In this document: positions 2,377-61,640 of the stretch, piece after piece
How the letters are laid out: the number at the start of each line of letters is the position of its first letter
How positions within the stretch are numbered: position 1 is the stretch's first letter
NCBI GenBank assembly: GCA_026025075.1
Contig: JAPEUI010000001.1
Location: 248,001-312,000 of the forward strand
Direction of reading: 5' to 3'
Origin: Vezdaea acicularis
Taxonomy: Eukaryota
Length of the DNA: 64,000 nt
Notes under the pieces: model-generated
Seen by the model: the letters and a program-made list of their open reading frames with translations, nothing else
The model's database searches: none
What the model was told of the DNA's origin: nothing
Program-made: the position numbers and the translations under genes

Positions 2377-2989
2377 AGGCATGGTGATCGCAAATGGAAA
2401 GGTGTATTCTCTCTTCAGGGTTAGGCTAGAGCATTTACTGCATACGAAAAGCATGATCAAGTATCTTCGGGCGAATCCTTAACTCTACCAGTATCTCAAG
2501 CATGCTATAGCAAAACTAAATTGAACAAGAGTGAAATTTAGTAGCTGTGCACGAAACCTTAGCCCCTGCGTTAGTTTCAACTTATTCGTTCCTGGTCCGT
2601 ACAGCTTCCTGCAAAAGGGGAAGTCTATCCGCTCTAGGATACGGTGGATACCTAAAGGATGCTCCCAAGTACATCCGAAAGGGTTGTCTTTATCTGACCT
2701 CAATACTACCTTCCAGATGCTCAGCACGAGGCCTTACGCTTCAAATAGCCAGTATTGCTTGTAAGATTCACCAAACACATTAAGGACCTCAAACACCAGT
2801 TCAAGATCGGGAGCTAGGTGCGCCTAAAATGATCCATAGTATAACAACTTAATCATAGTTAAAGAAAAGCTTGCTGCTTGGTCCTGCCCTAGATGACTCC
2901 CGGCCTAGACTTTTGAGTGAACGAGATGTAAGTCCGCCTCAGATATTGCAGTGTCGGTCCACGCCTCTAATGTATTAAAGCGGAACGCC

Positions 2990-3050
2990 AAAAGTCCATA
3001 TCACGTGATATCTCGCTTCTGCACGTGAGTAAGACTTTATGTGTTGCATT
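2990..3050 (+). promoter_or_regulatory. Solo copy of the phased double-E-box composite element
   Basis: AAAAGT 2990-2995, CACGTG 3002-3007, CACGTG 3022-3027, TGTTGCATT 3042-3050; same order and near-identical spacing as the copies at 35.07-35.58 kb. Function unknown. Confidence 0.7.
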
Positions 3051-21400: not shown

Positions 21401-24400
21401 TTTACATGAGCGCTAGCTGCTGGTCGATCTGGTCGTCCAGGAACTGTCGCCTCTCGCCACTGAGTTCCGTCTGCAGTCTTTGCTCGACAAGCGCTCGCAC
21501 TGTCAAGAACTCGTGAGTATCATGTTTGAGGAGCTACTTTCTAAGAAAGCGTGCACATACCTTGCTTCTTCGTCACGTTGTTCAAGTCCACCTCGTGCAG
21601 ACACGCCTGCACCGCTTCGACGATGGTGCTGTCCTCGATGCCACCCCGGCCAGAATAGTCGTTCGGGTTGAAGCTCAACTGACTCCTTCGTGGCGATGTC
21701 ATCTGCATCAGGTTGTCCGTGCTTCTCTGCTGCTGATGCCCTCCGTAAAGCTCGCTCATATTTCCCGCGGACATCATACGATTCGGCTGGGGGGTCTGTG
21801 GGCTGGCGTAGCCCGTGAGTTGCGAGTATCCCGACTGGCGGTGGTTTCCACCGAAAGGTGCGGGAGAGGGAGGCATATGCGCCGAGTGAAAGTTGGTGAG
21901 GATGGTCGATGCAGGCTTCACAGACGAGTAGACCGAGTTTCGCTCGTCCATCTCAAAGGCCTCGTCTTGGTAGGCAGGCAGCTCGGCCTTCTCGTTGCCC
22001 CGACGACCAGGCAGGTTATGGCGTAGAGCATAGTCATCCCACCGTTGCAACGGTATGCTGCGAGGATCAAAAGGCGTATCATCGACCGCAACCACCTTCG
22101 TGCCCTTCTCGCCAATGACGATTCGCGTGTTACCCCACGTGAAGTTGTCCTGGTTCCAGAAGGAATAGATGGGCAGAATGAACGAGTAGATAGGAAAGGC
22201 TAGCATATAGATGATCATCCACCCGACATGCTGCCACTGCCGCTTGATGATGAAGATGATCGCTTGGAGACCGTACACAGACGCAATCATGATGATGGAG
22301 ATCAAGGGGAATTGACCAGAGTGCGTCGAGACCCTGTAGATCAGATATCCGAGGTAGGCACAGGTAGCAGGCAGGATGATAGTACCAAAAAGATCGATGA
22401 ACACGACGAAGCGCATGCTGAAGCAGCAGAAGCCACACATGTCGCTCAGCCATACGAGTTCTCCAAGATTGTGAATCGTCGAGTTGATCCATCGTCGTCT
22501 CTGCGAGAGCAGGACGCTCCACGTCTCAGGGACAGCAGTACTGGCGTAGGCCTCGGGAACGAACTTGTAGGACATCTTGGAAAAGTACTTCGTCATGAGT
22601 GTCGTCAGATATCGATCTTCTCCGAGCGAGAGCAAGTTCTTCTTATGTAGCGTATCTACGTTGCCATCGCTGTACTCACGTAAAACGTTGTCGGAGATGA
22701 CCAGAGGCTTCCCTTTGTCGGCAGTTCGGAGTCGATACATGCAGAAGCATCCCGGCAAACAGGTGACGCTGCCAAACAAGCTCTCGAAGGACTTGGCCAG
22801 GTGATGAGAGATGTAGTACTCGTACACTTGTATCATGGTCCACCAACTTCCCTCTTCGTTTTCCAAGCTAGTCTCTCCGCAGATACCGGCGATCTTGGCA
22901 TTGTTGGTACAAGCCGCGACTAGATGGTTCAGCGAGTCCTCGCGGACGTTCGTATCTGCGTCGACCATGAAGAGATACTCGTAGAGCTCCGGATCGACCC
23001 CGATGATGTTGTTGATCTGATGGAACATCTCCAACTCAAGCGGTGACATGGGCCTGCGATGATGGACACGATTGAGAAAGCTGAGAAGTAAAATCTGGGA
23101 GTCGCGTTTGCCCCGATTCCCGGGCTTCGGGCGAGACTGCTCAGATTCCTTGCCGACTTTGACGACGACGATATATGGAACGACGTTGCCTTCGTATTCG
23201 TAGAGACCCGAGTATACTTTTCCGTAGTTGAGCTGCTCACTTCCTTGGCCAACACTCTTAAACTGCAAGGCAGGCGGATCGATCTTGGGGTCTACGCCAA
23301 GGATATCGAGAACAATTTTTGGCGTGGGCCGATCATTACCACCTCCAACAATCATACCGTCGCAGATGACGCAGATGAGCTTACGCTTGTTGTCGTATTG
23401 CAGGGCAGTTAACGAGTCGAGGCCCTTTCTGAGCTGATCTTCGCCCTCGGTGTAGGCCGGGACCTGACAGATCACGAACCTGTCTTGAGGAGTCGGACGG
23501 TTCTTGGATCTCAACTGCAGCGCAGCCAAAAACTTGGTAAGGATGACTGCGCAGAGGACGATGGTGAAGGACAGCAAGATGTAGTTGTTGACCTGACATC
23601 TGGCAGCCTTTCGAAAGTCGGTGGTGCCTGCGTAGAAAGCATTGTCGAGGCACTGGAGGTTCTTTCCGCTAGTGGTGTAGTTCAGCTGAGCTTCCCACAG
23701 TGGTGTAATATCCGTTCCTGGATTTTCCTTCACCAGCTTCTCCACCTCGGGGTCGAGGAAGTGGTATGCACTCAAGTCGTTCTGCCTGTCCGTGGTATGG
23801 AAATAGTTGGTCAAATCGTAAATCTTGTTATACAATATAACCCATTGGCGGTTCTGGTTCTGACCTTGTGACAAGATATCCTTCTTGGCCGTGACGAGAT
23901 CCCCCTTGTAGTACTCTTGAATCCGCGGCAAGAACTTCTGCACATACCAGTTGATGTCATGTAAAGCCGTCGTTGGATCGGCTTGGTACCTTGGGCCTGA
24001 TGTGTGCAGTCCCTCTGGATAGAGAATTGTGTCGTTGGTCTGAAGCTGAATAGACTGGTCCGTCACAAGGTTAGGACAGGCAATCGTGAGAGGAGGCATG
24101 AAATATTCGTCCAGGTTCAGTCCAGCAAAGGGTTGCATGTTATCCTTGGTGGTTTGGATGTTAGAGTCGCTGTGCTGCAATTTCCAGAACTTTGAGATGT
24201 CGTAAACCTTGCCATGGATGCTCACCCAAAAGTCATCATCTCCTTGATGGTAGCTGACTTCCTTCTGACTCCAGGCTTTGTCGTAGTTTGGACATAACAG
24301 TCTCCCGAACTCTATAATGTAGAACACCACGGTAGCGTTGAGAAGGAAGATGAAGAGCATGAGGACTAATTTTTCTCTCCAAGCCATGCGGACATCCGGG

Positions 24401-26740
24401 CGCTTCATTCTGCCTACAACTCGTAACAGAATCGAAGGTATCCAGAAGGTCAAAGCCCACACGACAGCTACCCAGATTCGGCGAGAAGGCTCCATGGGTG
24501 TTTGAGTGATGGTCTTTGGTTCTGCGAGCTCAGGGTCCATTTGGCCGACGAAATGGCCCACATCTTTGCCATCGTACAGAACTTCTCCATCATTGTCGTC
24601 GCCACGGTATCCAAGACCATAATCACCCCCAGCAACAAGCTTGCTCGGCGCTATGGATCGCGCTTGCTGGCCGGGTACAGGATCCAATGTTCCATGGCTC
24701 TGTTGATGCTGCAAAAGACGGTCGGTGCTTGCTTGCGCAGGGAAGTATTGCGCAGGAAAGAAACCACTGGCATTGCCGGGAAGATTGGTAGAGTACCCGC
24801 TTTCAAGGCCACCGTTGCCGGTGCCATCTTCAGGTTTGAGGTCGAGCATTTCCTCGGCTTCCCACCAAGCACTCTCACGCATCCAAATACGCTCATGGCC
24901 CACGACCACCTCGCCATTGCTCCAGCCACGTTCGAGTATCCAGCTTTCTATGCCGTCCTTGCCCTCTTGGCAGCCCAGTCGAGAGTATCTCGAGACAAAC
25001 TCGTCAATGTCAAAGTCAGCAGTGAAGTCCAGGTTCTTGTTGCGTCGGTTGGCCCATTCAGGTAATCTCCACGAGCGGAGTTGTCGGGAGACCGTACCAG
25101 CAGACCATGCGGATGTAGGAGAAGCTAGACCCGCAAGGCTTGCTGGCGAATCGTCGGTCGGATGCAACGCTAGCTGGTACCATACCCGGCTACTACCAAG
25201 GACGGAAGAGATATCGACACGGCCAAACTTGGCCACATTGACGCCTTCGCCGTCCACGGGGTACAGGATCTGCTTCAAAAAGCCACCGGCCTCAGCTTCG
25301 ATACCAATCTTCTCGAGGACACTCTCGCGTCGGTCCTTCTCGTACTCTCGATCTCTGCCAGTGGAGCCTGTCGATACCCCGAGGTCCGCTTCCGATTCGC
25401 TGACAGCGAGGTTCATTTCTCTGACGACTGATGAGCCGGCTGGGATGACTTCGACGCCGTCCTCTTTCATCTCGGCATTGATGCCAATGGTGTCATCAAA
25501 GACGCCACGTAACGCTATCGCTTTGCTCAGTGTCGGTCCAGGAATCTCCAGCACAGTTATGCTGACGGTATCTTCATCGTCCGTATTCGGAGTCCTTGTC
25601 CCATTGCCCATTCCACTCTCGCTCGAGGAATCCCCGTCTCGGGTGTGTTGCATGTCCGTGGCGATTGCCTGGTTAGCCTTCATGATGACCCAATCGACGA
25701 GTGCCTCATAGATACCGCCGATGAGCGACTCCCGTTCGGCCGTACTATTCGTTTGCACAAGGATGTCCGGCTCAATCCCCAATAGCCCAGCAACATCTTC
25801 ACAGATTTCTTCAATCACTTCGGCATCAACCAAGAACCCGAGTGTGTCTCCCAGCTTCAAAAGACCGGCAAGGACGGAGAGCAAGCTTCTTTGGGCTGCG
25901 CCCTTGATTCCGATGGATCTCAATCCGGCTCTAAAGTCTTCAGCAGCGGCCGCGTCGTCAGCAGCTCGTAAGTATGACGGCGGGTCATACGTTCCGGACT
26001 TGTTGAGTAGAGCATAAGCAGAGGAATGCTTCAAGCCGAGAAACTCTCGTTCTGCAGGCGTCGATGAAGATGTCAGAAGGTAATAGAAAACGTCGAATGC
26101 ACGGTAGCCAGATTCGGCAGGTATGTTGAGCAGTCCACGAGAAGTGTCAATCCCCGAGGTAGAAAGTCCTAGAGTCGCAGCTGTAAGGCCACCTGTGAGA
26201 CTGAAGGTGAATGTGGCGGCAAGGGCCGAATGATAGGATGCGGCCGGATTTTGAGGTGTCACGGCTCGCAGGAAGGGTCGAAGTGTCGACAAGGCAGTGT
26301 AGAGAGTTGAAGGGACAACCAAGGGTAAAGTCGGAATGAATGCGTTGAGAAGTGAAGGGGTTGACTCGTGTAAAGAGCTGTGAGTTGGTCAGTCTCGATC
26401 ATAGAGAGAGAGTTCTTCCTGGGCCTTACCCTAGAACGATACACCCGTCCTCTGCTCGCCTCCGGGCATGTTCCCATGCCCTTCGTCCAATCACTGCGTC
26501 CACCACGCCGCCCTCTCCCTCAGCGCCCGAGTTGGCAGCCGTAAGCCAAGTATTCACGACGAGACTTGTGCTTGTATCGAGCGGGTATGACTGGCTGGCC
26601 GTGTAGGCATTGTGGAGGGCATTTAGAAGTGATGTTGTGGAGACCTGAGCGGATTGCGGACCTCCTGGAAGGTTCCTGTTGCCACCTAGAAGGGAAGAGC
26701 TGTTGGAGTACATGGACATGCGATTCTGATGGCCTGCCAT
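21401..26740 (-). CDS. csmB: Class VII chitin synthase with degenerate myosin-motor-like domain (CsmB type)
   Basis: Short myosin-like N-terminus with no P-loop, cytochrome-b5-like domain, GT2 motifs [30 protein letters not shown] and QRRRW, and a C-terminal DEK_C domain; introns 26429-26378 and near 21560-21501. Confidence 0.95.
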
Positions 26741-28951
26741 AGCTGAAGATGTCGTGGTTGCTAAAATCAAAAAGTGTCAATAGATTTCGGCAACCCCAAA
26801 TAATGAAGGCTCACCCACCACCAAAGACCTTCAGTGATCAATAGCCTCTGTTTCTTGCCGCACCGATCGGCCAACCATCGAAATATGGTTTGGACGATTT
26901 AGAGAGACACGAAAGTGGTCGCGGCGGAACGGCAATTGAGCGTGTCGTGGTGAACAGGAGCACAGGGCGGCCTTCGCGTGTCCGGATTTAGAAACGAAGG
27001 GGATGGTGTTTCTTGGTCGCTGCAGTAACGAAGGGGAGCGGCGACGTAACGAAAGTTTGGAGAACGAACGAATATGAAAAGAGGAGCCACAACCGAGCAT
27101 CAAACGGCCCAAACGATTGACAGGCCGACGAGATGCTATGGAGAAACAAGAATGAGGAGGAGAATATTCGGATAGGAGAGTCGTGGCGTGAGTGAAGCTC
27201 TTTCTTCCTCCTTCGGCAAAGTTGGTGTCGGCCGCTTCGGTTCCTCGGACTTGCCCCCCTGCAACGACTGGATCTTGGTGGCCCACAGACCAATGGATAT
27301 GCCTCACACTGTATGACTTAGATCATAGAGCACATACGACGCAGTATGCGTAGCTACTCTTGTCAATGCATCGAGAAAGGGCAAATATCTCAGCTTTGCT
27401 TCCATGCTACTGATTCTTTGTTTACGACATTTAATCACATGTGTCAGGGGACGCCGCTTTCATATTTGACCTGTCATTTGCTCTCCCCTCAACTTCCACC
27501 CCATCACTTCAATTTTCAGTCCTCGCTGGTACTTTGCGACAATGCAAACAAGAACCAATCTCCGCATCGCACCACAGCTGAGCTGTTGCTATCGTTGATG
27601 CTGCTTTGCAAATTGTCGCCATCCACGCCCGTCTTGAGCTATGGATGATTCGTGCTCTCGGACCGGCCAGGGAGGCCGAGCCATTACGCGAAGCCTATTT
27701 TGGGCGGCGGCGATCCCCACACCACCACGGCCAATGCCACCCTCCCCTATCGCCGTGCAGCGAAACAGGTCTCACCCCGAGTGCCCGAGCGTGCAGACCG
27801 TGGGAAGGAGACGACGACGGGCGGATGGCTTTGAATACAGGAGACTCTCAACGCATGTCATATTGTCCACGCCGATAGCCTCCTCTTCGGCCCTTGCAAT
27901 CGATAGGAGAAGGCAGCCATGGAAGGTGATGCAGAGGCGTTTCGCTTGGAGGCCCCTTGGCCCCCTTCATTCCACCTCCCAGCGGCGCCCCCTGCATGGC
28001 CGCATAGCGAGCACCAATCCCGGAGAACGTGGACGGTTCAAAGCGGCATGGCGCGCCGGACTGGCCGAGGGCAAGAGCCCCCGAAGAGATTGAATTTGCT
28101 TTTCAACCGCCGAGCGGAGAGGCGGATGGGGGATCGGGCGCCCTCCGGAATGCGGAGAAGTCACCCCTGAAAGCGCCAAGGGATGGTCTCCCGCCGTCCG
28201 TAGTTTGAGTACTCGGGTGTTCGCTTCGCCGGGCCTCCCAGCAGCCGGTCGATGGCTGCGAGCGCTCTTTGTAGTAAACAGACCAGCAAGATAAACGTAG
28301 AAGAAGCTGCTATTCTTATGGTGGCGAGGTCGAGAGGCTCATGCCCTGGCGGAGGATCAGGGTCCACGCTCTGGGTGAGGGTGCGAGGGGTGCGAGGAGA
28401 CACCAACGCATCATCCCTGCCCTCGCTTCTCGGCTCTCCCTCCCAGCGGCCTCTGATGGTGTGTTGCCCCGAGTGAGCGAAAAATCCGCGATGCACTAAC
28501 GACGGTCATGGACGGCGATGGCCAGAAGGGCATCATCCGTGCACAACCTTCGTCCACCACGCATCTTCGTGATATCGCTGCTCTCTCTACCCAACAGCTC
28601 AAACAGAGCGGGTGATGTCCTTCGTTCTCTCCACAATCACCCTCGTTTGAATAGTCTCTCGCTGCTTCCAAAGATCCCAGTGACGTTTCAGTTGCCCGAG
28701 CATCGATTCGCTTGTTTTCTATTTTGAGTAGCCGAAAAGCTGCTTCACGCTCGCTCGACCCCTAGACCACGAACTTCACGAACCCTCTTCCTCTGCACTA
28801 ACGCCGTCGTTCGGACGCTTTCTCACTCGAATCGAAGGATTGACACGTCCGCCTCTCCTTGCGTTGCCCAACAAGGCTTGATCGCCCTCCGTGGGCACGG
28901 CTTCACCAGTCCTCTCTTCCATTTCTCTGAGAGGACCCTCCTTCATTCAAC

Positions 28952-31900
28952 ATGGCGTTCAATTCCTTTGGCAACAGCCCGCCAGCATACGCCCAACCGT
29001 CCTTACCTTCTCTTCCCTTGCATCTTCAATCCGACACCCATCTGACGGCCCATCTAGCCAGCCGTTTCCATGTCAACCTCCCCACGACACAACTCTCTTC
29101 TCATGCCTTGATCTCCCTCAACACCTATACTTCGTCCGCCAAGGGCCCTAACGATGGCAAGGAAGGGAGCGCAATGGCAGGCGCGGAGGAGATAGCGGGA
29201 CGAGCTTGGACAAGGCTTGGATCGCGAAGTGAGAACCAAGCCGTGCTGTTTCTGTAAGTGGTTGGCTAGTGGCTCTTCCGAAAGACTTCACTCTAGAATC
29301 GTTGCTAATACTTTACAATCCATCAGGGGAGAATCAGGTTCGGGAAAGACTACACTACGATCTCATCTCTTGTCCTCACTCTTGGTCTTCTCTTCGACAC
29401 CCCTCGCTACCAAACTCTCCCTGGCCGCATTCGTTTTCGATACCCTGACCACAACAAAGTCCGTGACCACCCCAACTGCGTCGAAGGCTGGCTTGTTTTA
29501 CGAGCTTCAATACGATACATCTTCCACCGTGCATCCGACGTTGATAGGTGGGAAATTACTGGATCATAGGCTAGAGAGAAGCAGGGTGGCATCGGTGCCA
29601 ACGGGCGAGAGGAACTTCCATGTCCTATACTACCTCCTCGCCGGGACGAGCGCTGCGGAGAAAACGCATTTGGGTCTAGACTCGGGCTCGTCTGCACCAG
29701 GAGGAAATGGAAATGCGGCTGGTAATCGTGCGTCGCTCACCCATGGACAAAAGAGATGGCGCTACCTCGGTCACCCCACACAGTTGAAAGTGGGTATCAA
29801 CGACTCGGAGGGCTTTCAACACTTCAAGACGGCTCTAAGAAAACTCGAGTTTCCTAGGAGCGAGATCGCAGAGATTTGCCAAGTTCTGGCCAGCATCCTC
29901 CACATTGGTCAGCTCGAGTTCATCACGAGCGAGCACACGACCCCTGCAGCGGACGACAGTGGAGGTTATTCCCATGAAGGGGGCGAGACTGTCACCGTGG
30001 TCAAGAACCGGGAGGTTCTCGCAGTTGTGGCAGCTTTCCTTGGTGTGAGCACCCAGGACCTGGAAACAAGTCTGGGCTATCGCACGAAGACCATCCACAA
30101 GGAACGCGTTACGGTCATGCTAGACCCACGCGGCGCCCGTGAAAATGCAGACGAGCTCGCCCGGACTCTCTATTCGCTCCTGGTCGCATATGTCATTGAG
30201 AATATCAATCAAAAGGTCTGCGCGGTCGAGGACACGGTGGGAAACACCATTTCCATCATTGACTTCCCCGGATTCGCGCAGTCCTCATCTACTGGGTCCA
30301 CCCTCGATCAGCTTCTGAATAATGCTGCTACCGAGTCTCTCTATAATTTCTGCTTACATAGCTTCTTCGAAGGAAAAGCTGAGTTGCTTGAGAGTGAAGA
30401 AGTCAGTGTCCGCGCTACAAGTTACTTTGACAATTCAGATGCCGTCCGAGGGCTTCTAAAGCATGGCAACGGCCTACTCAGTATCCTTGACGACCAGACG
30501 AGGCGAGGTAGGACCGATCTCCAGTTCCTCGAAAGTATTCGGAAACGGTTCGAGAACAAGAACCCGGCAATATCTGTTGGAAGTGCCACCGCAACGCTTC
30601 CAGGCAGCAACTTTGCAACTCACAATGCCGCTGCTTCCTTCACCATTAAACACTTCGCTGGAGAGGTGGAGTATCCTATCGCTGGTCTGGTGGAGGATAA
30701 CGGAGAAGTCATCTCGGGTGACTTGATGAATCTCGTCAACTCGACTAGAAGCGACTTTGTACGTGAACTCTTTGGCCAAGAGGCCCTAAATACCGTCACG
30801 CACCCGCAGGAAAAAGCAGCGATCATGCAAGCTCAGGTCAGCTCGAAGCCCCTCCGTATGCCAAGCATGATCCGGAAGAAGGGTCAGAGGCCAACCCGAC
30901 TTGGAACCCGAAAGACTAGCGGGGCTCAGGGGTTGGCAGACGACTCCCCCGATGACGCTAGCGAGGCCGGTGTCGCTAAACGGGGCTCTCCTGACGGCAA
31001 CAGGCCTCGGAAAGACGCGTCTGAACAAGGTGCAGCGGCCCAGTTCTTAACCTCTCTGGACACAATCGTCAAATCCTTAACGCAATCAAACACAAATCCC
31101 TACTTTATATTCTGTCTCAAGCCGAATGACAGACGCATTGCGAATCAATTCGACAGCAAGTGCGTGAGGATGCAAATTCAAACCTTTGGTATTGCAGAAA
31201 TAAGCCAGAGGTTGCGCAATGCAGACTTTAGCATATTCCTTCCGTTTGGAGAGTTCCTTGGTCTTGCAGAGGCAGACTCCATCGTCATTGGTAGTGAACG
31301 GGAGAAGGCTGAGACGTTTTTGGGCGAAAGGAGCTGGCCTGGCAACGAAGCTCGTGTCGGCAGTACTGGCGTATTCCTTAGTGAACGATGCTGGTCCGAG
31401 GTTGCCAAGATCGAGGGAAGGAGTCACGTAGGAGATGGCAGCATCAATGCGGGCGGCGAGGTTTACGAAGGAGGTACCTTCAGTGACTCCAAAGCCAAGC
31501 TTCTCCCCTCGAATGCGAACACACCTTCTCCTGGAGTCATGTACAGTGACGAGACGAAGCAACCGTTGTCAGGATACTTTGGAAGCAAGGATATCGATGG
31601 ACGGTCGGATGCAGGAGCTTCTGCTTATATCTCTGGAGATTTGTTCCGAAACCTCGAAACGCGTGAGCAGATGGCTGAGAAAGGAAACGAGAGGAAGATG
31701 GAAGAAGTTGATGATGTTGTCGTCACTGGCCGCCGAAAGCGCTGGATGGCCGTTGTATGGCTGCTCACTTTCTTCATACCGGACTTTGTTATCCGGTATG
31801 TTGGCCGCATCAAGCGGAAGGACGTGAGGACCGCGTGGCGCGAGAAGCTCGCCATCAACATGTTGATCTGGTTCAGCTGTCTTTTCGTCGTCTTCTTCAT

Positions 31901-34786
31901 CGGTAAGGCTCACTCTACTTTGCCACTTTTGGCGTTGCTCACCACTCTCTAGTTGTCTTCCCACAGTTGATATGTCCGAAAGAATATGTCTTTTCTGCTG
32001 CCGAGCTTTCTAGCTACGACGGGAAGGGGAAGGACGGAGCATATGTCGCAATTCGAGGCCAGGTCTTCGATCTCGGCGCTTTTATACCAACTCATTACCC
32101 GCCCATCATTCCTGAGAAGGATCTGAAGAAATACGCCGGTGTAGACGCAACAAGTCTTTTCCCCGTGCAAGTCTCTGCACTTTGCCAGGGCAAGCTCGGG
32201 CAGGTTGACCCAGCTGTGCAGCTTGATTACACTTCAAGCAACACCACTGGTGCTCCCACCTATATCAGCAACACAGACCCGAATTCTCGTTACCATGATT
32301 TCAGGGCGTGGACCAACGATTCTAGGCCCGACTGGTTCTTCGAACAGATGATCTATCTCCGAGGAAATTTCAAGAAGGGCGACATCGGATACACGCGCCA
32401 ATATGTCAAGACCCTCTCCGGAAAGCAGCAGTCTATTGCCATCCTTAATGACCGGGTGTACGACTTCACCGCGTATAGAAAGGGTGGTCGTGTCATCCAT
32501 TCTATTCCCAACTCGGATTCTGCTCCGGCCTCTGATGCCGCAGACTTCATGGATGACCTGGTCGTCGAACTATTCCAGGAAAGACCAGGCCAAGACATCA
32601 CGAAATACTGGGAAGCCCTCAAGATCGATTCCGGACTGCGATCTCGAATGCAGCTATGCTTAGACAATCTCTTCTACGTTGGCAAGGTGGACACGAGGAA
32701 TTCGCCGCAATGCCTCTTCGCTCGATACATTCTCCTGGCTATTTCGATCCTGATGGTCAGCGTAATTGGGTTCAAATTCTTCGCCGCTCTGCAGTTTGGA
32801 AGAAAGAATATTCCGGAGAACTTGGACAAGTTCATCATCTGCCAAGTCCCCGCGTATACGGAAGACGAAGAATCGTTACGCCGAGCAATCGATTCCGCTG
32901 CCCGTATGAAGTATGATGACAAGCGCAAACTGCTTGTTATCATCTGTGATGGCATGATCATTGGCCAAGGCAACGACCGACCGACGCCACGTATCGTCTT
33001 GGACATTCTTGGAGTCGCTGACACTGTTGACCCCGAACCACTAAGTTTCGAAAGTTTGGGCGAGGGTATGAGGCAACACAACATGGGCAAAGTGTACTCT
33101 GGACTCTACGAGGTGCAAGGCCACATCGTCCCATTCCTAGTGGTCGTCAAGGTGGGGAAGGCTACTGAAGTCTCAAAGCCTGGAAATCGCGGCAAACGGG
33201 ACTCTCAGATGATCTTGATGCGTTTCCTCAACCGCGTTCATTACAATGATGCCATGAGCCCTCTCGAGCTCGAGATGCATCATCAAATCCGCAACATCAT
33301 CGGTGTCAATCCAGTCTTCTATGAATTTATGCTGCAGATTGATGCAGATACCGTTGTGGCTCCGGACTCGGCGACCCGCATGGTGGCCGCCTTCTTGCAC
33401 GACACTCGACTTATCGGAGCCTGTGGTGAAACTGCTCTCACCAACGCAAAGTCATCCTTCATCACCATGATTCAAGTCTATGAATATTACATCTCGCACA
33501 ACCTTTCGAAAGCCTTTGAAAGTCTGTTTGGTAGCGTCACGTGTCTGCCGGGTTGCTTCAGCATGTACCGTATCCGTGCTGCTGAGACGGGAAAGCCCCT
33601 GTTCGTCCATACGAGTGTTGTGGAGTCGTATGCTGAGATTCGGATCGACACATTGCACATGAAGAACCTCCTGCACCTCGGTGAAGATCGATATCTCACG
33701 ACGCTTCTACTCAAGCACCATCCGAAGTACAAGACCAAGTTCCTCTTCCATGCGAACGCATGGACTATCGCCCCGGAGAGCTGGAAGGTCTTCATGTCTC
33801 AACGTCGTCGCTGGATCAACTCGACTGTACACAACTTGATGGAGCTCATCCCGCTGCAGCATCTGTGCGGTTTCTGCTGCTTCAGCATGCGCTTCATCGT
33901 GTTCTTGGACCTCCTCAGTACTATTGTCCAGCCGGTCACTGTCGCATACATCGCCTACCTTCTCGTGCTTATCGGAGAAAAATCGAGCGTGGTGCCCCTC
34001 ACTGCCTTCATTCTACTCGGCGCCATATACGGTCTCCAGGCAATCATCTTCATCCTCCGCAGGAAGTGGGAGATGATCGGCTGGATGATCCTGTACATCC
34101 TTGCCATCCCCGTCTTCTCCTTTGGACTGCCCCTCTACGCGTTTTGGCACATGGACGATTTCTCGTGGGGCAACACCCGCGTCGTCACGGGCGAGAAGGG
34201 CCGCAAGGTTGTCATCTCCGACGAAGGCATCTTCAAACCAGAGATGATCCCCCGCAAGAAATGGGATGAATACCAAGCAGAGCTATGGGATCAGCAAACG
34301 CAACACGGCGACGACCGGTCCGAAGTCTCTGGCTTCTCATACGGCACCAAGTCGTACGCTCCGCAGTCCGAGATCTACATACCACACTCGCGCCCCATGT
34401 CGCAGCTAGATATCCCTCGGCAAGGCTCACGGCTCAGCCTCGCGCCATCCGAAATGCTCGGCACGCATCATGGCTCCCAGTTCTTCGCGACGCACGAGAT
34501 GGAGATGGGCAACCTCGGCGGCGGTGGTCTGCCCTCCGACGACAGCATCCTGGCCGAGATCCGCGAGATCCTGAAGACGGCCGACCTGATGACGGTCACG
34601 AAGAAGAGCATCAAGCTCGAGCTGGAGCGGCGCTTTGGCTTGAATCTCGACGTCAAGAGAGCTTATATCAACTCTGGTGAGTTTTTTTTTTCCTGTGTTT
34701 TCATCTCAATACGCTCTTTTTTGGGATTTGTTTTGCTAATGCTGCCAATGTTAGCCACCGAGGCCCTGCTCTCTGGCCAGCTGTAG
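28952..34786 (+). CDS. csmA: Class V myosin-motor chitin synthase (CsmA type)
   Basis: Myosin motor with P-loop GESGSGKT and [13 protein letters not shown]; cytochrome-b5-like domain; IDADT, GEDRYLT and QRRRW; DEK_C tail; introns 29254-29326, 31903-31952 and 34677-34754. Confidence 0.97.
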
Positions 34787-35067
34787 CACCAATTCGCTTT
34801 TTTACCCTTTTTTTCCAATGGGGGACTTGTTTGCATAGGGGCTGGAGCGCTGGGACCTGGTTTTTTTTTTTACTTCTTTTTCTTGGGGCATTCATTGGTT
34901 TTAAAAGGGGGCATCTGCTAGCCTTAGGCTCGAACCAAAGAGACGTCATTCCACACGGGGGGCATGCAAAAGCTGGTGGTATATGTTTAATGCATTAATA
35001 GGCCTTTTTCTACATGCCTTTTTCTCGTGATTCCCTTCACAGTGCTCGCTGGCCCGTCTGTATAGTC

Positions 35068-35582
35068 GTGACGTATAAAGTGGTATGTCACGTGAGACTG
35101 AGGGAGAGCACGTGGGGTTGAGGTTTTTGCCGTTATGTTGGTGGCGGTCGAGATGAGGGCATTATGTATGGCAAGGGAAACGCATCGCCTCCATGGAGAG
35201 TATGTGATAAGAAAAGTTGTGTATCACGTGATGAAGAACTTAAAGCACGTGAGGGTGTGGTTTTGGTGTTGCATTATCTTTGAGCGCTCGAAAGATATGC
35301 CGCAGTCCATGCAGTTGGGCTGCAGTCGAACATAACGATCGAGACGCGAAAAGTCGCTCCTCACGTGGGAAGGATGAAGAAGCACGTGGAAGATCAGGTT
35401 TTGCGTTGCATTAGTTCATTTCACGACAAAGTGGGATTCAGATCGCAACAGAGCCGTAGAGGAAGGAAGCCGCAGAGGTTGTGCAGGTGGCGAGCGTCGT
35501 CTCATCAGTTGCGATGAGAAAAGTCTTATATCACGTGGTAAGCTCGATTTTACACGTGACTGATGGGTTTTTGTGTTGCATT
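35068..35582 (+). repeat. Array of four phased double-E-box composite elements separated by unrelated spacers
   Basis: CACGTG pairs at 35089/35109, 35225/35246, 35362/35383 and 35532/35553. Each has (A/T)AAAGT starting 13 bp before the first E-box and GGTTTT after the second; copies 2-4 end in YGTTGCATT (35267, 35404, 35574). Confidence 0.85.
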
Positions 35583-36454: not shown

Positions 36455-37495
36455 ATGCCGTCCCTCTACGCTCTAATACCGCTCCTCCTCGCCCTCCCCC
36501 TCACCCACGCCACCACCTCCCCCAAACGCGGCCTCGTCTACGTCGCCCCCGCAAAATCCACCTCCGACAACACAATCTGGACGCAGCCGCCTTCAGACCT
36601 GACATGGTACTACAACTACCAAGACGTACCGACGGCGGCCTTCGCCGGCAACGGCCTCGAATTCGTGCCCATGCTATGGGGCGCCCCGACGAACCCGACG
36701 ACCAACACCTCCTTCCTGGACAGCATCAAATCGCAGCTCGCGGCCGGCGCCAATATCACCTCCGTGCTCTTCCTGAACGAGCCCGACGGGAGCAGCGCCA
36801 CCGGCGGCTCCGCCACGGACGCCATCACCGCCGCGCAAGTCTGGCAAACGCAGATCGAACCCCTCAAAGCGCACGGCATCAAACTCGGCGGCCCCGCCGT
36901 CACCGGCGCCCAGAACGGCTTCAATTGGCTCCAGAACTTCTTCAACGCCTGCGCCGGCAATTGCTCCGTCGATTTCTTGCCCGTGCACTGGTACGGCAAT
37001 TTCGAGGGTCTGGCCTCGCATATTGGGCAGGTCAGGGGTACCTATATGAATAGCAGCATCTGGGTCACCGAGTATGCCCTCCCGAATAGCCCGCTGAAGG
37101 ATACTCAAGGCTTCTTTAATACCAGCGAGGAGTACTTTGATCGTATCGAGTACGTTCTTTTTTCCCCCCCCTCTCTTTTCTTCCCCTTCCTTTTCCCTTT
37201 CCCCCCCCCCAAAGCTTCTCTTCCTATCAAACGATCAAGCTAACATGCAACTCCAAACAGCTACATCGAGCGCTACTCCTACTTCGGCGCCTTCCGCTCC
37301 TCCGTCTCCAACGTCGGCCCCAACGCCGCCTTCCTCACCCAGGACGGCAAGCTCACCGACATCGGCTCCTGGTACCTCGGCCGCGCCGCCACCGGCAACG
37401 TCCCCAAAGGCGCCGCGCCCTCGTCCCTGGGCAACCCGCTTACGGGATGGGCCCTTGGGCTTGTTGGACTGGTGCTCGGGTGCGTGCTGGTCTGA
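36455..37495 (+). CDS. GH128-family beta-1,3-glucanase-like protein, secreted and probably GPI-anchored
   Basis: Signal peptide; KRGL, TWYYNY, EFVPMLWG, FLNEPD, DFLPVHWY, IWVTEY and ERYSYFG motifs; intron about 37150-37260; hydrophobic C-terminus WALGLVGLVLGCVLV. Confidence 0.9.
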
Positions 37496-52100: not shown

Positions 52101-52463
52101 AGTATAGTTTGCTCGGATGCTGGTACCCGCCTCGTAGCGGACTGAGGTATGACTCCCCTATCTGATATATGCCCAAGTCTTGAGTCTCCGCTTGCCGACC
52201 CAAGCCACCAAGCACAATGTGATATTTCTTTGAAAACATACTTACATCTGGATATTCTGATGTAGACACGAGGCACCCTATTCTACAGCATTTCAACCCC
52301 TAGAGACTTAAATATAAAGTTGGACGAAGTTCCGTAAGGAGAGTACACGACAGAAGTTTCATAAGCCCAAACTTGAGGCTGTCGCCTCTTGTTTCACTTG
52401 AATGCTTCGTCAATATTACGACAAGGACAATCGACCATCTTCCCTGCTCAGATCGTACGGAGT

Positions 52464-54998
52464 ATGGACGGGAATGGGATCCCGCCCATCACCGCACCAT
52501 GGCCAGTCAGAGATATTGTCTATGTCTCAATCATGGGCACTGTCATGATTGCAGCTTTTCTCGAGTGGTTTCTATGGCTGGCCGCTTTCGTTTACTGCCT
52601 CATCAAATGCTTCCAGAAAGCCGAACACTGGACTATTAGAGTATTGGTAGTAGTGGTGATGGTTCTTTTCACGGCATTAAGAGCAATCTTCCTTCCAGTG
52701 ATGATGGTCACCCTCCCACTCCCTTCACAGGTCACCCAATACTTCCCGGAAAAAATGGTCAGCGCCCTGCAATGGTTTGCCTTCTGGACGTTTGCCGGTC
52801 TACTAACAGTGCCTTGGCTATTCTGTGTCTATCGGCTGGTTACTGAGTCTTTGGGACGTACAAAACGTATTAAGCATGTTCTTGACGAATCGACCGCACC
52901 GAAAGTCGTCATCGTCATGCCGTGCTACAAGGAGGTCCCTGAGGTCCTTGTCACCGCTATTGATTCAGTGGTCGATTGCGACTATCCCCCAACATGCCTT
53001 CATGTTTTCCTATCGTTTGATGGTGATCAGGAAGATGAATTGTACCTACAGACCATCGAGAAGTTGGGCGTCCCCCTTACACTAAAAAGCTACCCGCCGA
53101 GTATTGATGTGACGTATCGCAATTGTCGGATTACAGTATCTCGATTTCCCCACGGTGGAAAACGACACTGTCAGAAACGGACATTCAAGCTCATCGATAA
53201 AATCTATACGGAATATCTCAAGCGAAATGATAACTTGTTTATTTTGTTCATCGACTCGGACTGCATCTTGGATAAGGTCTGCATCCAGAATTTTGTTTAT
53301 GAAATGGAACTCAAGCCCGGAAGCAAGCACAACATGTTAGCCATGACCGGTGTTATCACTTCGACGACTGAGAAGAATACATTAATCACTTTGCTGCAGG
53401 ACATGGAGTATATCCACGGTCAATTGTTTGAACGGTCCGTTGAGTCAGGGTGTGGTTCTGTGACCTGTTTGCCTGGAGCCCTGACTATATTACGCTTCTC
53501 AGCATTTCGAAAGATGGCAAAGTACTACTTCGCAGACAAGGCAGAGCAGTGCGACGATCTTTTCGACTATGGAAAGTGTCATTTGGGGGAAGACAGATGG
53601 CTGACACATCTCTTTATGATTGGGGCTAAGCAGCGCTATCAGATACAGATGTGTACGGGAGCTTTCTGCAAGACGGAGGCAGTCCAGACCTATCAGAGCT
53701 TGCTGAAACAGCGAAGGCGGTGGTTCTTGGGGTTCATCACAAATGAAGTCTGTATGCTTACAGATATTCGACTTTGGCGAAGGTACCCGATCCTCTGCAT
53801 TGTCAGATTCATGCAGAATACCATCCGGACTACTGCCCTACTATTCTTCATCATGGTCTTATCCATCATTACTACCTCGAATAAGATCAAAAACCTTCCT
53901 GTTGGCTTCATTGCGGTATCTTTAGGCCTCAACTGGTTGCTTATGTTCTACTTCGGTCTTCGTTTAAGGCGGTTCAAAGCATGGCTGTACCCAATTATGT
54001 TCATTGTTAACCCATTCTTCAATTGGGTTTACATGGTCTATGGAATTTTCACCGCTGGCCAACGGACATGGGGAGGCCCTCGAGCTGATGCCGGCGCCGC
54101 CGACGGAAGTACGACTGCCCAGCAGGCAATTGAGCATGCGGAAGCAACCGGAGACGATCTCAACGTGGTTCCTGAAACTTTCAAACCAGCTCATGAGGAG
54201 CGGCTGAACAAAGAGCAAGGAGCAATTCCACAGATGCCATTACAACCGCCCGAGCGCGTGGAAGGGAGATTTGCCCCAGCACGAAGAGGTTCTGGTGGTT
54301 GGTACCACCAGGATGACTCTAATCAAACCCTTGCTGACACGCTCGGACGGAACGGTGTCATTCCCCGTATGCCGTTACAGCCGCGTGACTCATTCGACAG
54401 CTTCGATACCTCCGGGTCTGGTGCGAATTCTGTCTATATGCCTCGCCGGGTGGAGAGTTTGATGGGTGAGGAGGACAAGAAGAAGTACATGGTTGCTCAA
54501 TTCACTCAAAGAGACATGAGCGGATCTTTCCACTCTGAGATGTCCCGGCAAGGCCACGTGTACGAGGCTGGAGATGCGAACGAGAAGATCTCTTCTGGCG
54601 AGTCTAGCGATTTCTCAGACAGAGACCAAATTACCATCGCGCCGCCTAGGCAGGTTAGATCATATACGCCGCAACGCTCACCAGCTATTGAGCCAGCTGG
54701 TGAATTTGTTCCGCTCCCTGAGATAAACCGCGGCTCGTTCACGGTAGCTATGCCGGAGTCACCACATATTCCAGGCGAGAGACTTTCAAACGCCTCCTTT
54801 GCTGTCAGGAGGCCGCAGGGAAGTCCTCTAGCTTCAGCAAATGTTATTCGGCCCAGCGATGAAATTGAGGAGATGAGTCTGCCATCTCCACCCAGCCATC
54901 CTGGCGAATGGTCAGAAGAGAGCCCTCGAACTTCCACGGACACGCAGAGAGCTAGGAGGAACAGATTGACAAAGAGCCCAAGAAGGAGTAGGGCGTAA
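52464..54998 (+). CDS. chsD: Class VI chitin synthase (ChsD type, GT2)
   Basis: Uninterrupted ORF with N-terminal TM helices and FLSFDG, HGGKRHCQ, FIDSDC, TCLPGALT, LGEDRWLT, QRRRW and RTWGGPRAD motifs; no myosin or cytochrome-b5 domain. First in-frame ATG at 52464. Confidence 0.9.
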   Translation: MDGNGIPPITAPWPVRDIVYVSIMGTVMIAAFLEWFLWLAAFVYCLIKCFQKAEHWTIRVLVVVVMVLFTALRAIFLPVMMVTLPLPSQVTQYFPEKMVSALQWFAFWTFAGLLTVPWLFCVYRLVTESLGRTKRIKHVLDESTAPKVVIVMPCYKEVPEVLVTAIDSVVDCDYPPTCLHVFLSFDGDQEDELYLQTIEKLGVPLTLKSYPPSIDVTYRNCRITVSRFPHGGKRHCQKRTFKLIDKIYTEYLKRNDNLFILFIDSDCILDKVCIQNFVYEMELKPGSKHNMLAMTGVITSTTEKNTLITLLQDMEYIHGQLFERSVESGCGSVTCLPGALTILRFSAFRKMAKYYFADKAEQCDDLFDYGKCHLGEDRWLTHLFMIGAKQRYQIQMCTGAFCKTEAVQTYQSLLKQRRRWFLGFITNEVCMLTDIRLWRRYPILCIVRFMQNTIRTTALLFFIMVLSIITTSNKIKNLPVGFIAVSLGLNWLLMFYFGLRLRRFKAWLYPIMFIVNPFFNWVYMVYGIFTAGQRTWGGPRADAGAADGSTTAQQAIEHAEATGDDLNVVPETFKPAHEERLNKEQGAIPQMPLQPPERVEGRFAPARRGSGGWYHQDDSNQTLADTLGRNGVIPRMPLQPRDSFDSFDTSGSGANSVYMPRRVESLMGEEDKKKYMVAQFTQRDMSGSFHSEMSRQGHVYEAGDANEKISSGESSDFSDRDQITIAPPRQVRSYTPQRSPAIEPAGEFVPLPEINRGSFTVAMPESPHIPGERLSNASFAVRRPQGSPLASANVIRPSDEIEEMSLPSPPSHPGEWSEESPRTSTDTQRARRNRLTKSPRRSRA

Positions 54999-59519: not shown

Positions 59520-60569
59520 TCAACTCACCAGCCTCTCGACTACCGCCATCTCCACCAACCCTTCTAAGAATCTTCTGGTCGCAACATCCCACCCTTCCCC
59601 GCCTTCTTCCGCCTTGGGCACAATTATCTTCACTTTCCCTTCGCCTCCAAGCACAAATGCGCCGCATGCAACCTTTGATACACGCGCGGCGGGACCTAAC
59701 TCGAGGGCTAGGTGCTGTTTGACGTACGCCGAGATCGCGCTGCTGAGGGGACCACCCGCAGATGCATGGGCACCATCACGGACCTTGCCGGTCGTAGAAC
59801 CTTGACAGAGTGCGGCTCCATGTGAAAGCAAGCGGGGGAAGTCGTCACGAGAGATGGTGATGTCGAGCGTCCTCAGAGAGGGCATTGCGGTCGGGAATGA
59901 GAGCGTGAGGGTGATATCTCTAAGGACCGTAGTAAGAATCTGTTGTGCTGCCGCCGCAGAGTTGCTGGTCAAACTTTGGAGGTCTGTGATGTATTGCTCA
60001 AGGGAGGAGAAAAGGGAGAATGTCGGAATGAGAAGAGAGGAGATACGAGTGTCAAATGTGCTGTTAAGGTAGGATATCAGCGTATCGCGGAGGGGTCCAG
60101 GCATGCGGACTAGGAGCAAGGGCAGGTAGGTAAAGTCCTTATTCGCGGGATCCTGTGAATAGCTCGAGAGGCGCTCTGGGGTACTGAGAAGGATAGCCGC
60201 ATAATGAGCACGCTCGTAAGAAACGTCGATATAGACTCCTCCTCTATCTTTAACCGTGAAGCCTTCTCCTTCCCCCTTCTGTATCGCACGCTGCTCCTCC
60301 ATCCAATCATCCGCAGAGCCTAGAATCCGCCATGTGCACCCGATCAATGCACCGCTCCGTGCTAAACCTTCGTCATTGCTGCTGCTGAGCCCCACGCGCA
60401 CACCTCGAAGGACTTCACCTTTGAGGATATCATGGAAGCGGCGGGCGTGGGATGCAAGAGCGGAATCGCTGAGAAAAAGGTGTGGTGTGTAGAGGGGTGA
60501 GAGCCGGTGGAGGGTTAAAGTCGTTTGATATAGAGGGTATGGTAGAAGAACAGGAGAGTCATCAGCCAT
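59520..60569 (-). CDS. fta1: Kinetochore Sim4-complex subunit Fta1/CENP-L
   Basis: YPLYQTTLTLHRLSPLY, LKGEVLRGV, LPLLLVRMP..LR...ISYLNSTFD and VSKVACGAFVLGGEGKVKI motifs typical of fungal CENP-L; first ATG at 60569. Confidence 0.8.
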   Translation of the reverse strand: MADDSPVLLPYPLYQTTLTLHRLSPLYTPHLFLSDSALASHARRFHDILKGEVLRGVRVGLSSSNDEGLARSGALIGCTWRILGSADDWMEEQRAIQKGEGEGFTVKDRGGVYIDVSYERAHYAAILLSTPERLSSYSQDPANKDFTYLPLLLVRMPGPLRDTLISYLNSTFDTRISSLLIPTFSLFSSLEQYITDLQSLTSNSAAAAQQILTTVLRDITLTLSFPTAMPSLRTLDITISRDDFPRLLSHGAALCQGSTTGKVRDGAHASAGGPLSSAISAYVKQHLALELGPAARVSKVACGAFVLGGEGKVKIIVPKAEEGGEGWDVATRRFLEGLVEMAVVERLVS

Positions 60570-60615
60570 AGTGAAGGAGTCAGGCCCTAAATGTGGGGTG
60601 ATGATCCGGAAGCAG

Positions 60616-60627
60616 ACGCGTTCGCGT
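60616..60627. promoter_or_regulatory. Tandem MCB-like elements (ACGCGT TCGCGT) upstream of CENP-L
   Basis: One perfect and one single-mismatch MluI cell-cycle box about 50 bp upstream of the ATG. Confidence 0.5.
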
Positions 60628-61640
60628 CGTAGGTGGAATTGGATCGGCGGAGATTGCCGATCAAGACAAAAGCCGAGGTTCTCTAGAAAAAGATACACTA
60701 CCTACAACTGAGTTATTCAGAATACTTAAGTTATGCCGGATGACTTCGTTAGTCTTATCACGAGTCAGACCACATTTCTCAACGCTGAATGGCTTGTGTT
60801 ACATGTGGACAGCCGGCAATAGGGTTTTTATAGAAGCTCCTGGCCGCATCGTCACTGACGTTGTGGCTTTCAAACGTCGTCTTTGGAGATTTCATTTAGT
60901 CCATGAGAAACGCTGGCATGCGAAAATCTTATCGTTGAGGCTCTTTCGTTCTGCTTTGTTTAATGTTGAAAGTTTCAACACTCCCTAGTTCCGCTAGTCT
61001 TTTTGTGCAAGCAAGACCTGTTGATGTCTACCCTTTGCCTTGCAACCGCTCGAGAATTTACGATGGAATGAAAATTCATATACTGGTTTCCCAACTTCAA
61101 AGTAGTGGAGAGTGAAGCGATCGCCTGAAGGCTCCTTTCACTGCGTTGCTTCAAAGATGGCACTCCAAGTGCCCTTCCAGCAAGGCGTCTACTGGAAAGC
61201 GTGTGGCGCTAAAGTCTCTACTATTACTAGGAAATGTGTATTGAGATGCCTGAGATTACAACTGATATTGAAGCTGCGACTCAAAGACGTGGTAACCCCA
61301 TCAGAACATGTTTCCCCTCACATCACTGGCTCTACTTGCTACTTCCCAACTGAGCCCTAGGCTGTGGCTTCCTTATAGCGTTGTCACCATACACCTGATT
61401 CTTCGACGACCCGCGGAAAGGTCCTCCTAACAAGCTTCATGGACCATGGTATTCGCTACTCGCAGGAACATTCACTTAATAGCTTCGTACAGTATGGTAT
61501 TCGCTATGGTATTAGCTATGATCATTCTTTCTGAATTTTACTTGGAAATACATGTTCATTCGTTAACACGTTAAGGATCAACTCTCAACACATTCTTCTT
61601 CTGTCAACTCACATATTGGCATCCATCTTGTCATCTCGCC

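Follow-up and report, generated by a model that had tools for sequence, protein, structure and literature searches.

The sequence analysed here, called the window throughout, comprised 64,000 nucleotides of contig C1 (positions 248001–312000) in the 18.9-Mb, 315-contig genome assembly of a filamentous ascomycete. A tandem array of short units lay between a myosin-motor chitin synthase gene and a gene for a secreted glycoside hydrolase. The upstream neighbour was identified by its 3' part (31907..34786, + strand; Pfam Chitin_synth_2, Cyt-b5 and DEK_C) and ended ~280 bp before the first unit. The first exon frame of the downstream neighbour (36455..37243, + strand), which was recognised as a Glyco_hydro_cc enzyme by Pfam PF11790 and the translation of its start, began ~870 bp after the last unit. 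The chitin synthase belonged to a head-to-head pair of myosin-motor chitin synthases (21541–34786), which is an ordinary arrangement for such genes, and a further chitin-synthase-like glycosyltransferase was found at 52377–54998.

A preliminary description of the array had recognised four units, and these were confirmed in place, with their spacings and periods. Unit 1 (35067..35136) had a left arm at 35067–35078, E-boxes at 35089–35094 and 35109–35114, and a degenerate right arm at 35125–35136. Unit 2 (35203..35273) had arms at 35203–35214 and 35262–35273 around E-boxes at 35225–35230 and 35246–35251. Unit 3 (35340..35410) had a left arm at 35340–35351, E-boxes at 35362–35367 and 35383–35388, and a consensus right arm at 35399–35410, and unit 4 (35510..35580) had arms at 35510–35521 and 35569–35580 with E-boxes at 35532–35537 and 35553–35558; no strand was assigned to any unit. 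The four E-box pairs (35089/35109, 35225/35246, 35362/35383 and 35532/35553) were spaced by 20, 21, 21 and 21 bp respectively, and the unit periods were 136, 137 and 170 bp. A solitary fifth unit occurred at 2981..3048 (E-boxes 3002/3022, 20 bp; likewise unstranded), flanked by convergent genes for eIF2-alpha (ORF 1849–2376, + strand) and a SWIRM/Myb protein like SWI3-RSC8 (ORF 3505–5673, - strand). When the window was searched with the paired-box pattern, 8 strand matches were obtained and 100 shuffles yielded 0; throughout the genome there were 47+39 matches, against 0+0 for a reversed-pattern control, and a chance origin is excluded.

Each unit was a dyad of ~70 bp, in which two CACGTG boxes were flanked by outward-facing copies of one motif, TTTTGCGTTGC, according to the formula arm-N8-TCACGTGA-N12/13-TCACGTGA-N8-arm. 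The first (GNGAYRN.AWAAGT) and last (GGTTTT..YGTTGCATT) boxes of the original consensus were not distinct, being the same motif in opposite orientations. A profile of 114 half-sites from 57 units read, outward from the E-box, TCACGTGA, ~8 free bases and TTT(T/C)G(C/T)GT(T/C)GC. In 94 of 140 half-sites exactly 10 bp separated the start of the arm from the E-box, and in 25 the distance was 9 bp.

Further genomic copies exist. A profile scan of the fetched loci identified 74 units, compared with 0 in ~100 kb of shuffled DNA; 70 units, in 27 arrays, exceeded the cut-off of 30 bits and the other 4 were left out of counts. Among the 70, the E-boxes were 21 bp apart in 47, 20 bp in 22 and 22 bp in one, and there were four additional dyads with a shorter, 10-bp centre. 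Units were solitary or arranged head-to-tail in arrays of 1–15, with periods mostly of 120–171 bp. The family was scattered at ~30 loci in 18.9 Mb, with ~17 multi-unit arrays on different contigs; the ~865 kb examined included essentially all exact 20/21-bp pairs, and not loci in which every unit is degenerate. Contig C1 was scanned along all of its 424 kb with a profile trained without it, which gave an unbiased count of 6 full units at three loci, together with isolated half-sites at two further loci and another next to the dyad at 151.8 kb; the corresponding numbers in 248 kb of shuffled DNA were 0 full units and 1 half-site. The three dyad loci on C1 fell within 132 kb, and contig C24 carried two. 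On contig C57 (L121:4600–5100), four right half-sites were arrayed with degenerate left halves, in which CAGGTG replaced the first E-box, and this array included a recent 116-bp duplication.

Outside the genome, a 36-bit pattern that recovered 40 of the genome's own units matched 25 metagenome, 0 viral and 21 prokaryote loci, in collections with few fungi and perhaps without near relatives. These 46 loci had no convincing second arm (7/11 bases at best) and no dyad array, and several were simple repeats of 7–21 bp. No description of the dyad element was found in the literature searched, a scope that excluded most subscription papers. As far as these searches reach, the dyads constitute an undescribed family of cis-elements with an unusually strict grammar.

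Both arms accompanied E-box pairs at particular spacings only. Genome-wide, 88 E-box pairs had gaps of 0–30 bp, compared with 19 for a control. Of the 59 pairs at 20/21 bp, 51 had both arms, as did the one 22-bp pair and a 10+10 E-box triple; all four single dyads with a 10-bp centre had them too (Fisher P = 4e-5 for this class). Not one of the 26 scored pairs at other spacings (13–19 or 25–46 bp) had both; three of the 29 such pairs were left unscored (on C53, C126 and C293), and a 31-bp pair at C1:210429, with one strong and one displaced arm, was counted as negative. Around solitary E-boxes on C1, only 2 of 82 sides passed the same arm cut-off. The arm-to-arm distance peaked at 42–46 (59 of 85), and a smaller peak occurred at 34. 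The centre admits just one or two helical turns and half-turns were not seen, as would be expected if the bound proteins were in contact along a single face of the DNA. This supports the helical phasing that had been proposed for the window array, natural variants with a 10-bp centre having retained both arms. A near-perfect palindrome on contig C60 (L171, C60:19940), with E-boxes 46 bp apart, was without arms.

Boxes and spacers differed markedly in their conservation. Between arrays, pairwise identity was 0.60/0.72 for the arms and 0.27–0.34 for the spacers, where composition alone would give 0.26–0.32; within arrays, arms were 0.72–0.76 identical and spacers 0.31–0.41. Since exact E-box pairs had served to locate the arrays initially, the conservation of E-boxes is partly ascertained, and two other anchors were used that lessen this effect without removing it. 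When units were found by their arms alone, E-boxes were exact in 101 of 118, or in 65 of 82 after subtracting one both-exact unit per contig, where uniform decay at the observed divergence would leave 40–53% exact (P = 8e-13 to 8e-7). When units were found by the linker alone, 18 of 26 E-boxes were exact. The best matches between arrays were of 68–81%, which implies that the boxes were kept at each locus after the copies had parted; values of 83–84% occurred only for a segmental duplicate, and for the 16 arrays, of 27, that had a match of at least 100 bp, no near-identical copy was present (68–84%). The combination of divergence between loci and exact boxes indicates that the family spread by duplication long ago, and that the boxes have been kept since. 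Selection on the boxes and on their spacing, as originally suggested, is supported by these comparisons. There was no signature of RIP, the dinucleotide indices of the arrays being like those of contig C1.

This pattern bears on the view that the units are hairpins or cruciforms, structured RNAs or a decayed minisatellite. One copy, at C160:1782, was a near-perfect palindrome with a predicted fold of -53 kcal/mol (z = -15.6). However, spacers were not complementary to their own partners (0.254, compared with 0.272 when shuffled; median 0.27), and the five units of the window folded with z-scores of only -2.0 to +0.2. No Rfam match was obtained in the window or at 30 loci, and no tRNA nearby; this speaks against a structured RNA and leaves a set of non-coding RNA promoters, one of the functions first considered, without support. 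Tandem Repeats Finder reported nothing at the array, and similarity along the unit was not uniform, since spacers did not align as the boxes did. The hairpin and minisatellite interpretations are largely refuted, and we regard them as scarcely credible.

The first two units of the window proved to be one copy of a dispersed cassette of ~250–310 bp that was colinear at seven loci. In the window, this cassette (35041..35288, + strand) consisted of unit 1, a linker, unit 2 and a terminal GAGCGCT, and aligned with six other loci; its best matches in the genome reached 73% across 242 nt and 72% across 222 nt. The linker included a conserved box with a GATGAGGGCATTATG core (35147..35175, + strand), for which there were 13 linker matches on 8 contigs; it was situated 35–39 bp past the second E-box in family members and, when as many as 3 mismatches were allowed, matched the genome 8 times, against 0 for a control. 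The preliminary description had found the bases between boxes and between units unalignable by eye. This agrees with the composition-level identity of the spacers, but not with the linker (35147–35175) or the cassette end (35282–35288), which align at the six other loci; nor can duplication be said to have played no part, given that units lie within a homologous, dispersed cassette. The seven-locus alignment had a mean column identity of 65%, and 27 of 28 E-boxes were exact in these loci, which had been ascertained by their E-boxes. Other arrays combined this core with linkers of unrelated sequence and showed local duplications of recent date.

Homology between cassettes stopped at the 3' GAGCGCT (35282..35288, + strand, in the window), and a sequence like TCTCAAG(A)GAGCGCT was present in ~9 of 13 aligned 3' ends. 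At the 5' end, AGCGCTC was found in three copies and was degenerate in the window (AGTGCTC at 35041). The two ends shared only 6–7 bp. AGCGCT was intact on both sides in one of the seven aligned cassettes, that on contig C68, and partial in two more; being palindromic, the pair at C68 could equally be a target duplication or a short terminal inverted repeat (TIR). Helitrons end in 5'-TC and 3'-CTRR and have a subterminal hairpin; no such ends were seen when the alignment was inspected by eye, the aligned ends being AGCGCT. No terminus of a known transposon was matched.

Defined ends of this kind (3' GAGCGCT-like in ~9 of 13, 5' AGCGCTC in three, both at C68), and a colinear cassette at unlinked loci, are what a selfish, non-autonomous element would leave: an AGCGCT-bounded cassette of ~300 bp, Crypton- or MITE-like, whose phased boxes would be sites of mobilisation with no role for the host. 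The AGCGCT ends are compatible with Crypton-type direct repeats without establishing them, fungal Cryptons having 6-bp terminal direct repeats and no TIRs (PMC3212892). Some dyads also occurred beside Ulp1-like genes of a kind typical of mobile DNA. Against this, there were no near-identical copies and yet boxes were mostly exact, unlike neutral decay after insertion; the core was found in unrelated linkers too and, free of cassette ends, in solitary dyads and in those with a 10-bp centre; and genuine MITEs in the same genome had contiguous TIRs and target duplications, one of them interrupting a linker. No tyrosine-recombinase partner was present among 108 frames near arrays. A purely selfish element is, in our view, an unlikely explanation.

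The Ulp1-like genes were duplicated, putative C48 peptidase genes on contigs C160 and C225 (L046, L047 and L048), each with dyads ~600 bp upstream. The two ends of C225 were the same as those of C160, and C225 appears to be an alternative path. A frame of 1230 aa next to the dyads on C160 had a sub-threshold Pfam match to C48 peptidase, and the ESM Atlas returned no usable match for it.

Comparison with a relative differing by ~5% in coding sequence (sequencing run X5) concerned the same question. A 1020-nt contig joined the end of the chitin synthase to the downstream intergenic DNA, and was ~590 nt shorter, near the length of the array, with the joint resting on a side of 22 nt and the intervening letters not shown. 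Family sequence was present on other X5 contigs. The gap hints at turnover of the locus, which would argue against this single locus being essential; the probable absence of the array from the orthologous site weakly favours a mobile origin, and positional conservation in a relative looks, on the same slender joint, to be lacking at the window locus.

A single paralogous site was observed in three states: with a decayed left arm, as a near-perfect palindrome (arms of ~48 bp and a 20-bp centre), and as a fold-back of ~330 bp. Dyads can, we infer, be made or restored by the copying of one half-site.

Several other repeats were associated with the arrays. A fold-back, non-autonomous, hAT-like element with an 8-bp target duplication adjoined the array on contig C82 (L038:3492–5153); its subterminal repeats were 66 bp long and its centre was AT-rich, it broke the assembly, and its ends were found also at the starts of contigs C1, C302 and C253. 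A separate family of MITEs, of ~240–270 bp with TIRs of ~30–36 bp, was represented at L040:3578–3849 and L035:8253–8491, and on C1 at L133, L134, L135 and L149. Two MITE copies were inside dyad arrays, and one of these split a linker with a TAT duplication. The arrays are probably older than the MITE and hAT-like insertions in or beside them, and perhaps accessible. A further dispersed repeat of ~105 bp was found beside dyads at three loci (L042:4834–4938, L046:1624–1728 and L036:6005–6066).

The arrays were intergenic, in every orientation of the flanking genes and without promoter bias. Of 28 contexts, 12 were tandem, 8 convergent, 4 divergent and 4 undetermined, which was like the background of 68 gaps on C1 (33/20/15 tandem, convergent and divergent); the coding model used for orientation missed exons at three loci at least, which Pfam calls correct. 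Convergent placement had Pfam support on both sides at window position 3001, on C5 and on C261. No function common to the neighbours was found by Pfam on nearby frames.

These contexts are relevant to the possibility of an enhancer wired by transposons, which would place nearby genes under a bHLH regulator (Cbf1, SREBP or Pho4) and a partner. Enhancers typically contain composite sites at a fixed spacing, several arrays were less than 1 kb upstream of genes (Utp13, a BMS1-like gene and the window hydrolase), and there is a precedent in the Helitron heat-shock elements of Caenorhabditis (PMC6927752). Yet promoter-facing contexts were not in excess, dyads occurred between convergent genes at the three loci above, neighbours were without a common function, and the largest array, of 15 units, had no recognisable gene on one side. 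A gene-specific form of the enhancer suggested at the outset is not favoured by so orientation-neutral a context, and the enhancer interpretation as a whole seems to us decidedly doubtful. A ribosome-biogenesis regulon, suggested by the GATGAG core, was also considered and rejected, as only two such genes were directly downstream of arrays. A subtelomeric location was rejected as well, because the sole telomeric tract among the fetched loci was on C120, whose E-box pair lacks arms. This locus (L043, C120:1–10000) was telomere-capped, with frames that were low in GC, interrupted by stops and of no Pfam family in the 2 of 7 scanned.

Among the proteins of this fungus is a Cbf1 orthologue (at C270:72958), matching yeast Cbf1 with E = 1e-19, which lends support, by homology, to the early suggestion that the array is a platform for several proteins. 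Seven bHLH matches were found in all, including this orthologue and two that we take from their sequences to be SREBP-like and Pho4-like; these two and the four others could read the E-box instead of Cbf1. An HP1-type gene with a chromo-shadow domain was retained. The sequencing runs containing the region were labelled moss metagenomes. The best named relatives of a CENP-L encoded in the window (59520–60701), in Trichoglossum, Pleopsidium, Glutinoglossum, Geoglossum and Pycnora, were only 41–44% identical, so that the lineage is deep and poorly sampled. CENP-O (L033:3297–4415) was directly beside the dyad at C24:67760; the occurrence of CENP-L in the window and of CENP-O beside a dyad is probably coincidence.

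The presence of both TCACGTGA boxes and a Cbf1 orthologue raises the idea of a point-like or proto-point centromere, in which Cbf1 sites would be equivalent to CDEI. Point and proto-point centromeres are defined in PMC13017519 and PMC12925627, according to which Cbf1 binds CDEI, length jumps of ~10 bp are tolerated in yeast centromeres (PMC12925627) and motifs can be co-opted from mobile DNA (PMC13017519). The ~17 multi-unit arrays on different contigs would also be appropriate. However, the arrays were 39–55% GC, and an 80-bp window with no more than 30% GC, corresponding to a core of at least 70% AT, lay within 500 bp in only 1 of 27. Nor was there one locus per chromosome, as three occurred on C1 and two on C24, and the HP1-type gene is retained. 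A centromere is accordingly a very improbable function.

A sequence-defined replicator or chromosome tether, by analogy with the dyad-symmetry element and family of repeats of EBV oriP, would account for other features. Fold-back rearrangements were centred on the element, its dyad symmetry would suit bidirectional loading, and its intergenic position was neutral to orientation, convergent genes included. Fungal replication origins occur once per tens of kb, and ~30 loci in 18.9 Mb, with three in the 424 kb of C1, are far fewer than this; moreover, no AT-rich unwinding element was found nearby. The paired palindromic dimer sites are 21 bp apart, centre to centre, as in oriP (PMC3798644), although the resemblance is geometric only. 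The replicator or tether, taken by itself, is rather improbable.

The explanation that we tentatively prefer, and which may have a little less than an even chance of being correct, is that the dyads form a gene-independent chromatin platform, restricted to this lineage, which was spread by a mobile cassette, retained by the host and acts as double-stranded DNA. The boxes and their spacing are preserved while the rest decays, and so the element probably has a job at the level of the chromosome. From the architecture, phasing, differential conservation and dispersal observed, the proteins and their effect on chromatin might be supposed as follows. Two Cbf1 homodimers would occupy the E-boxes on one face of the DNA, and a second factor, about two turns outward of each dimer, would read TTT(T/C)G(C/T)GT(T/C)GC; this arm motif may be similar to the CRCRAAA sites to which KilA-N/APSES and Ndt80-type proteins bind. 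A footprint of ~70 bp every 120–170 bp would leave too little free DNA for a nucleosome. An array could in this way keep 0.1–2.7 kb of intergenic DNA open or phased, and so might serve as a barrier or organiser regardless of its neighbours. New dyads could form when one half-site is copied by fold-back, local tandem duplication could give rise to new arrays, and single loci would turn over.

A related proposal gives the element a part in chromosome maintenance, as a replicator or tether or as an aid to segregation; a pair of Cbf1 dimers would act with a partner factor in an oriP-like geometry, at sites seeded by a mobile cassette and self-regenerating through half-site fold-back. We think this unlikely as matters stand, but if it were true, Cbf1 would have been recruited to chromosome mechanics a second time, independently, outside the budding yeasts. 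Filamentous ascomycetes are not generally known to have sequence-defined origins, boundaries or centromeres. Here there is a rigid grammar of four sites, with natural variants of one and two turns, at ~30 loci and indifferent to the direction or function of genes. The dyad is a short, exact and portable substrate with which to test a structural role for Cbf1 outside yeasts and to pull down the partner protein, and it is possibly a new part for plasmid maintenance or insulation. A host-retained chromatin platform would show clearly how mobile DNA can become part of the chromosome architecture of its host; if the dyads are only a transposon relic or an enhancer, they would still be a well-defined new repeat family, of modest interest.

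Four known systems offer comparisons. Like non-autonomous Cryptons and MITEs (PMC3212892), the cassette is short and has defined ends, with a 6-bp palindrome at both in the best copy. Unlike the contiguous TIRs of MITEs, the dyad arms are interrupted by non-complementary spacers, and, in contrast to both kinds of element, there are no young copies, the boxes are conserved far above the rest and the core occurs free of the cassette. In Helitron heat-shock elements (PMC6927752), a dispersed repeat likewise delivers clusters of binding sites, at positions that differ between species, whereas the dyads are composite, strictly phased, without Helitron-type ends and not linked to a regulon. EBV oriP (PMC3798644) shares with the dyad family its paired palindromic dimer sites 21 bp apart and its single and arrayed forms; the family differs in being chromosomal in its host, in occupying ~30 loci and in having a 10-bp variant, and the two have no sequence relation. 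Finally, the dyad family departs from the point centromeres of budding yeasts in its two E-boxes, its tandem arrays, its several loci per contig and its want of an AT-rich core, and its host, unlike those yeasts, is a filamentous ascomycete that keeps HP1; but both combine a Cbf1-type CACGTG with a second motif at a constrained distance, both tolerate steps of ~10 bp, and both may have originated in mobile DNA (PMC13017519, PMC12925627).
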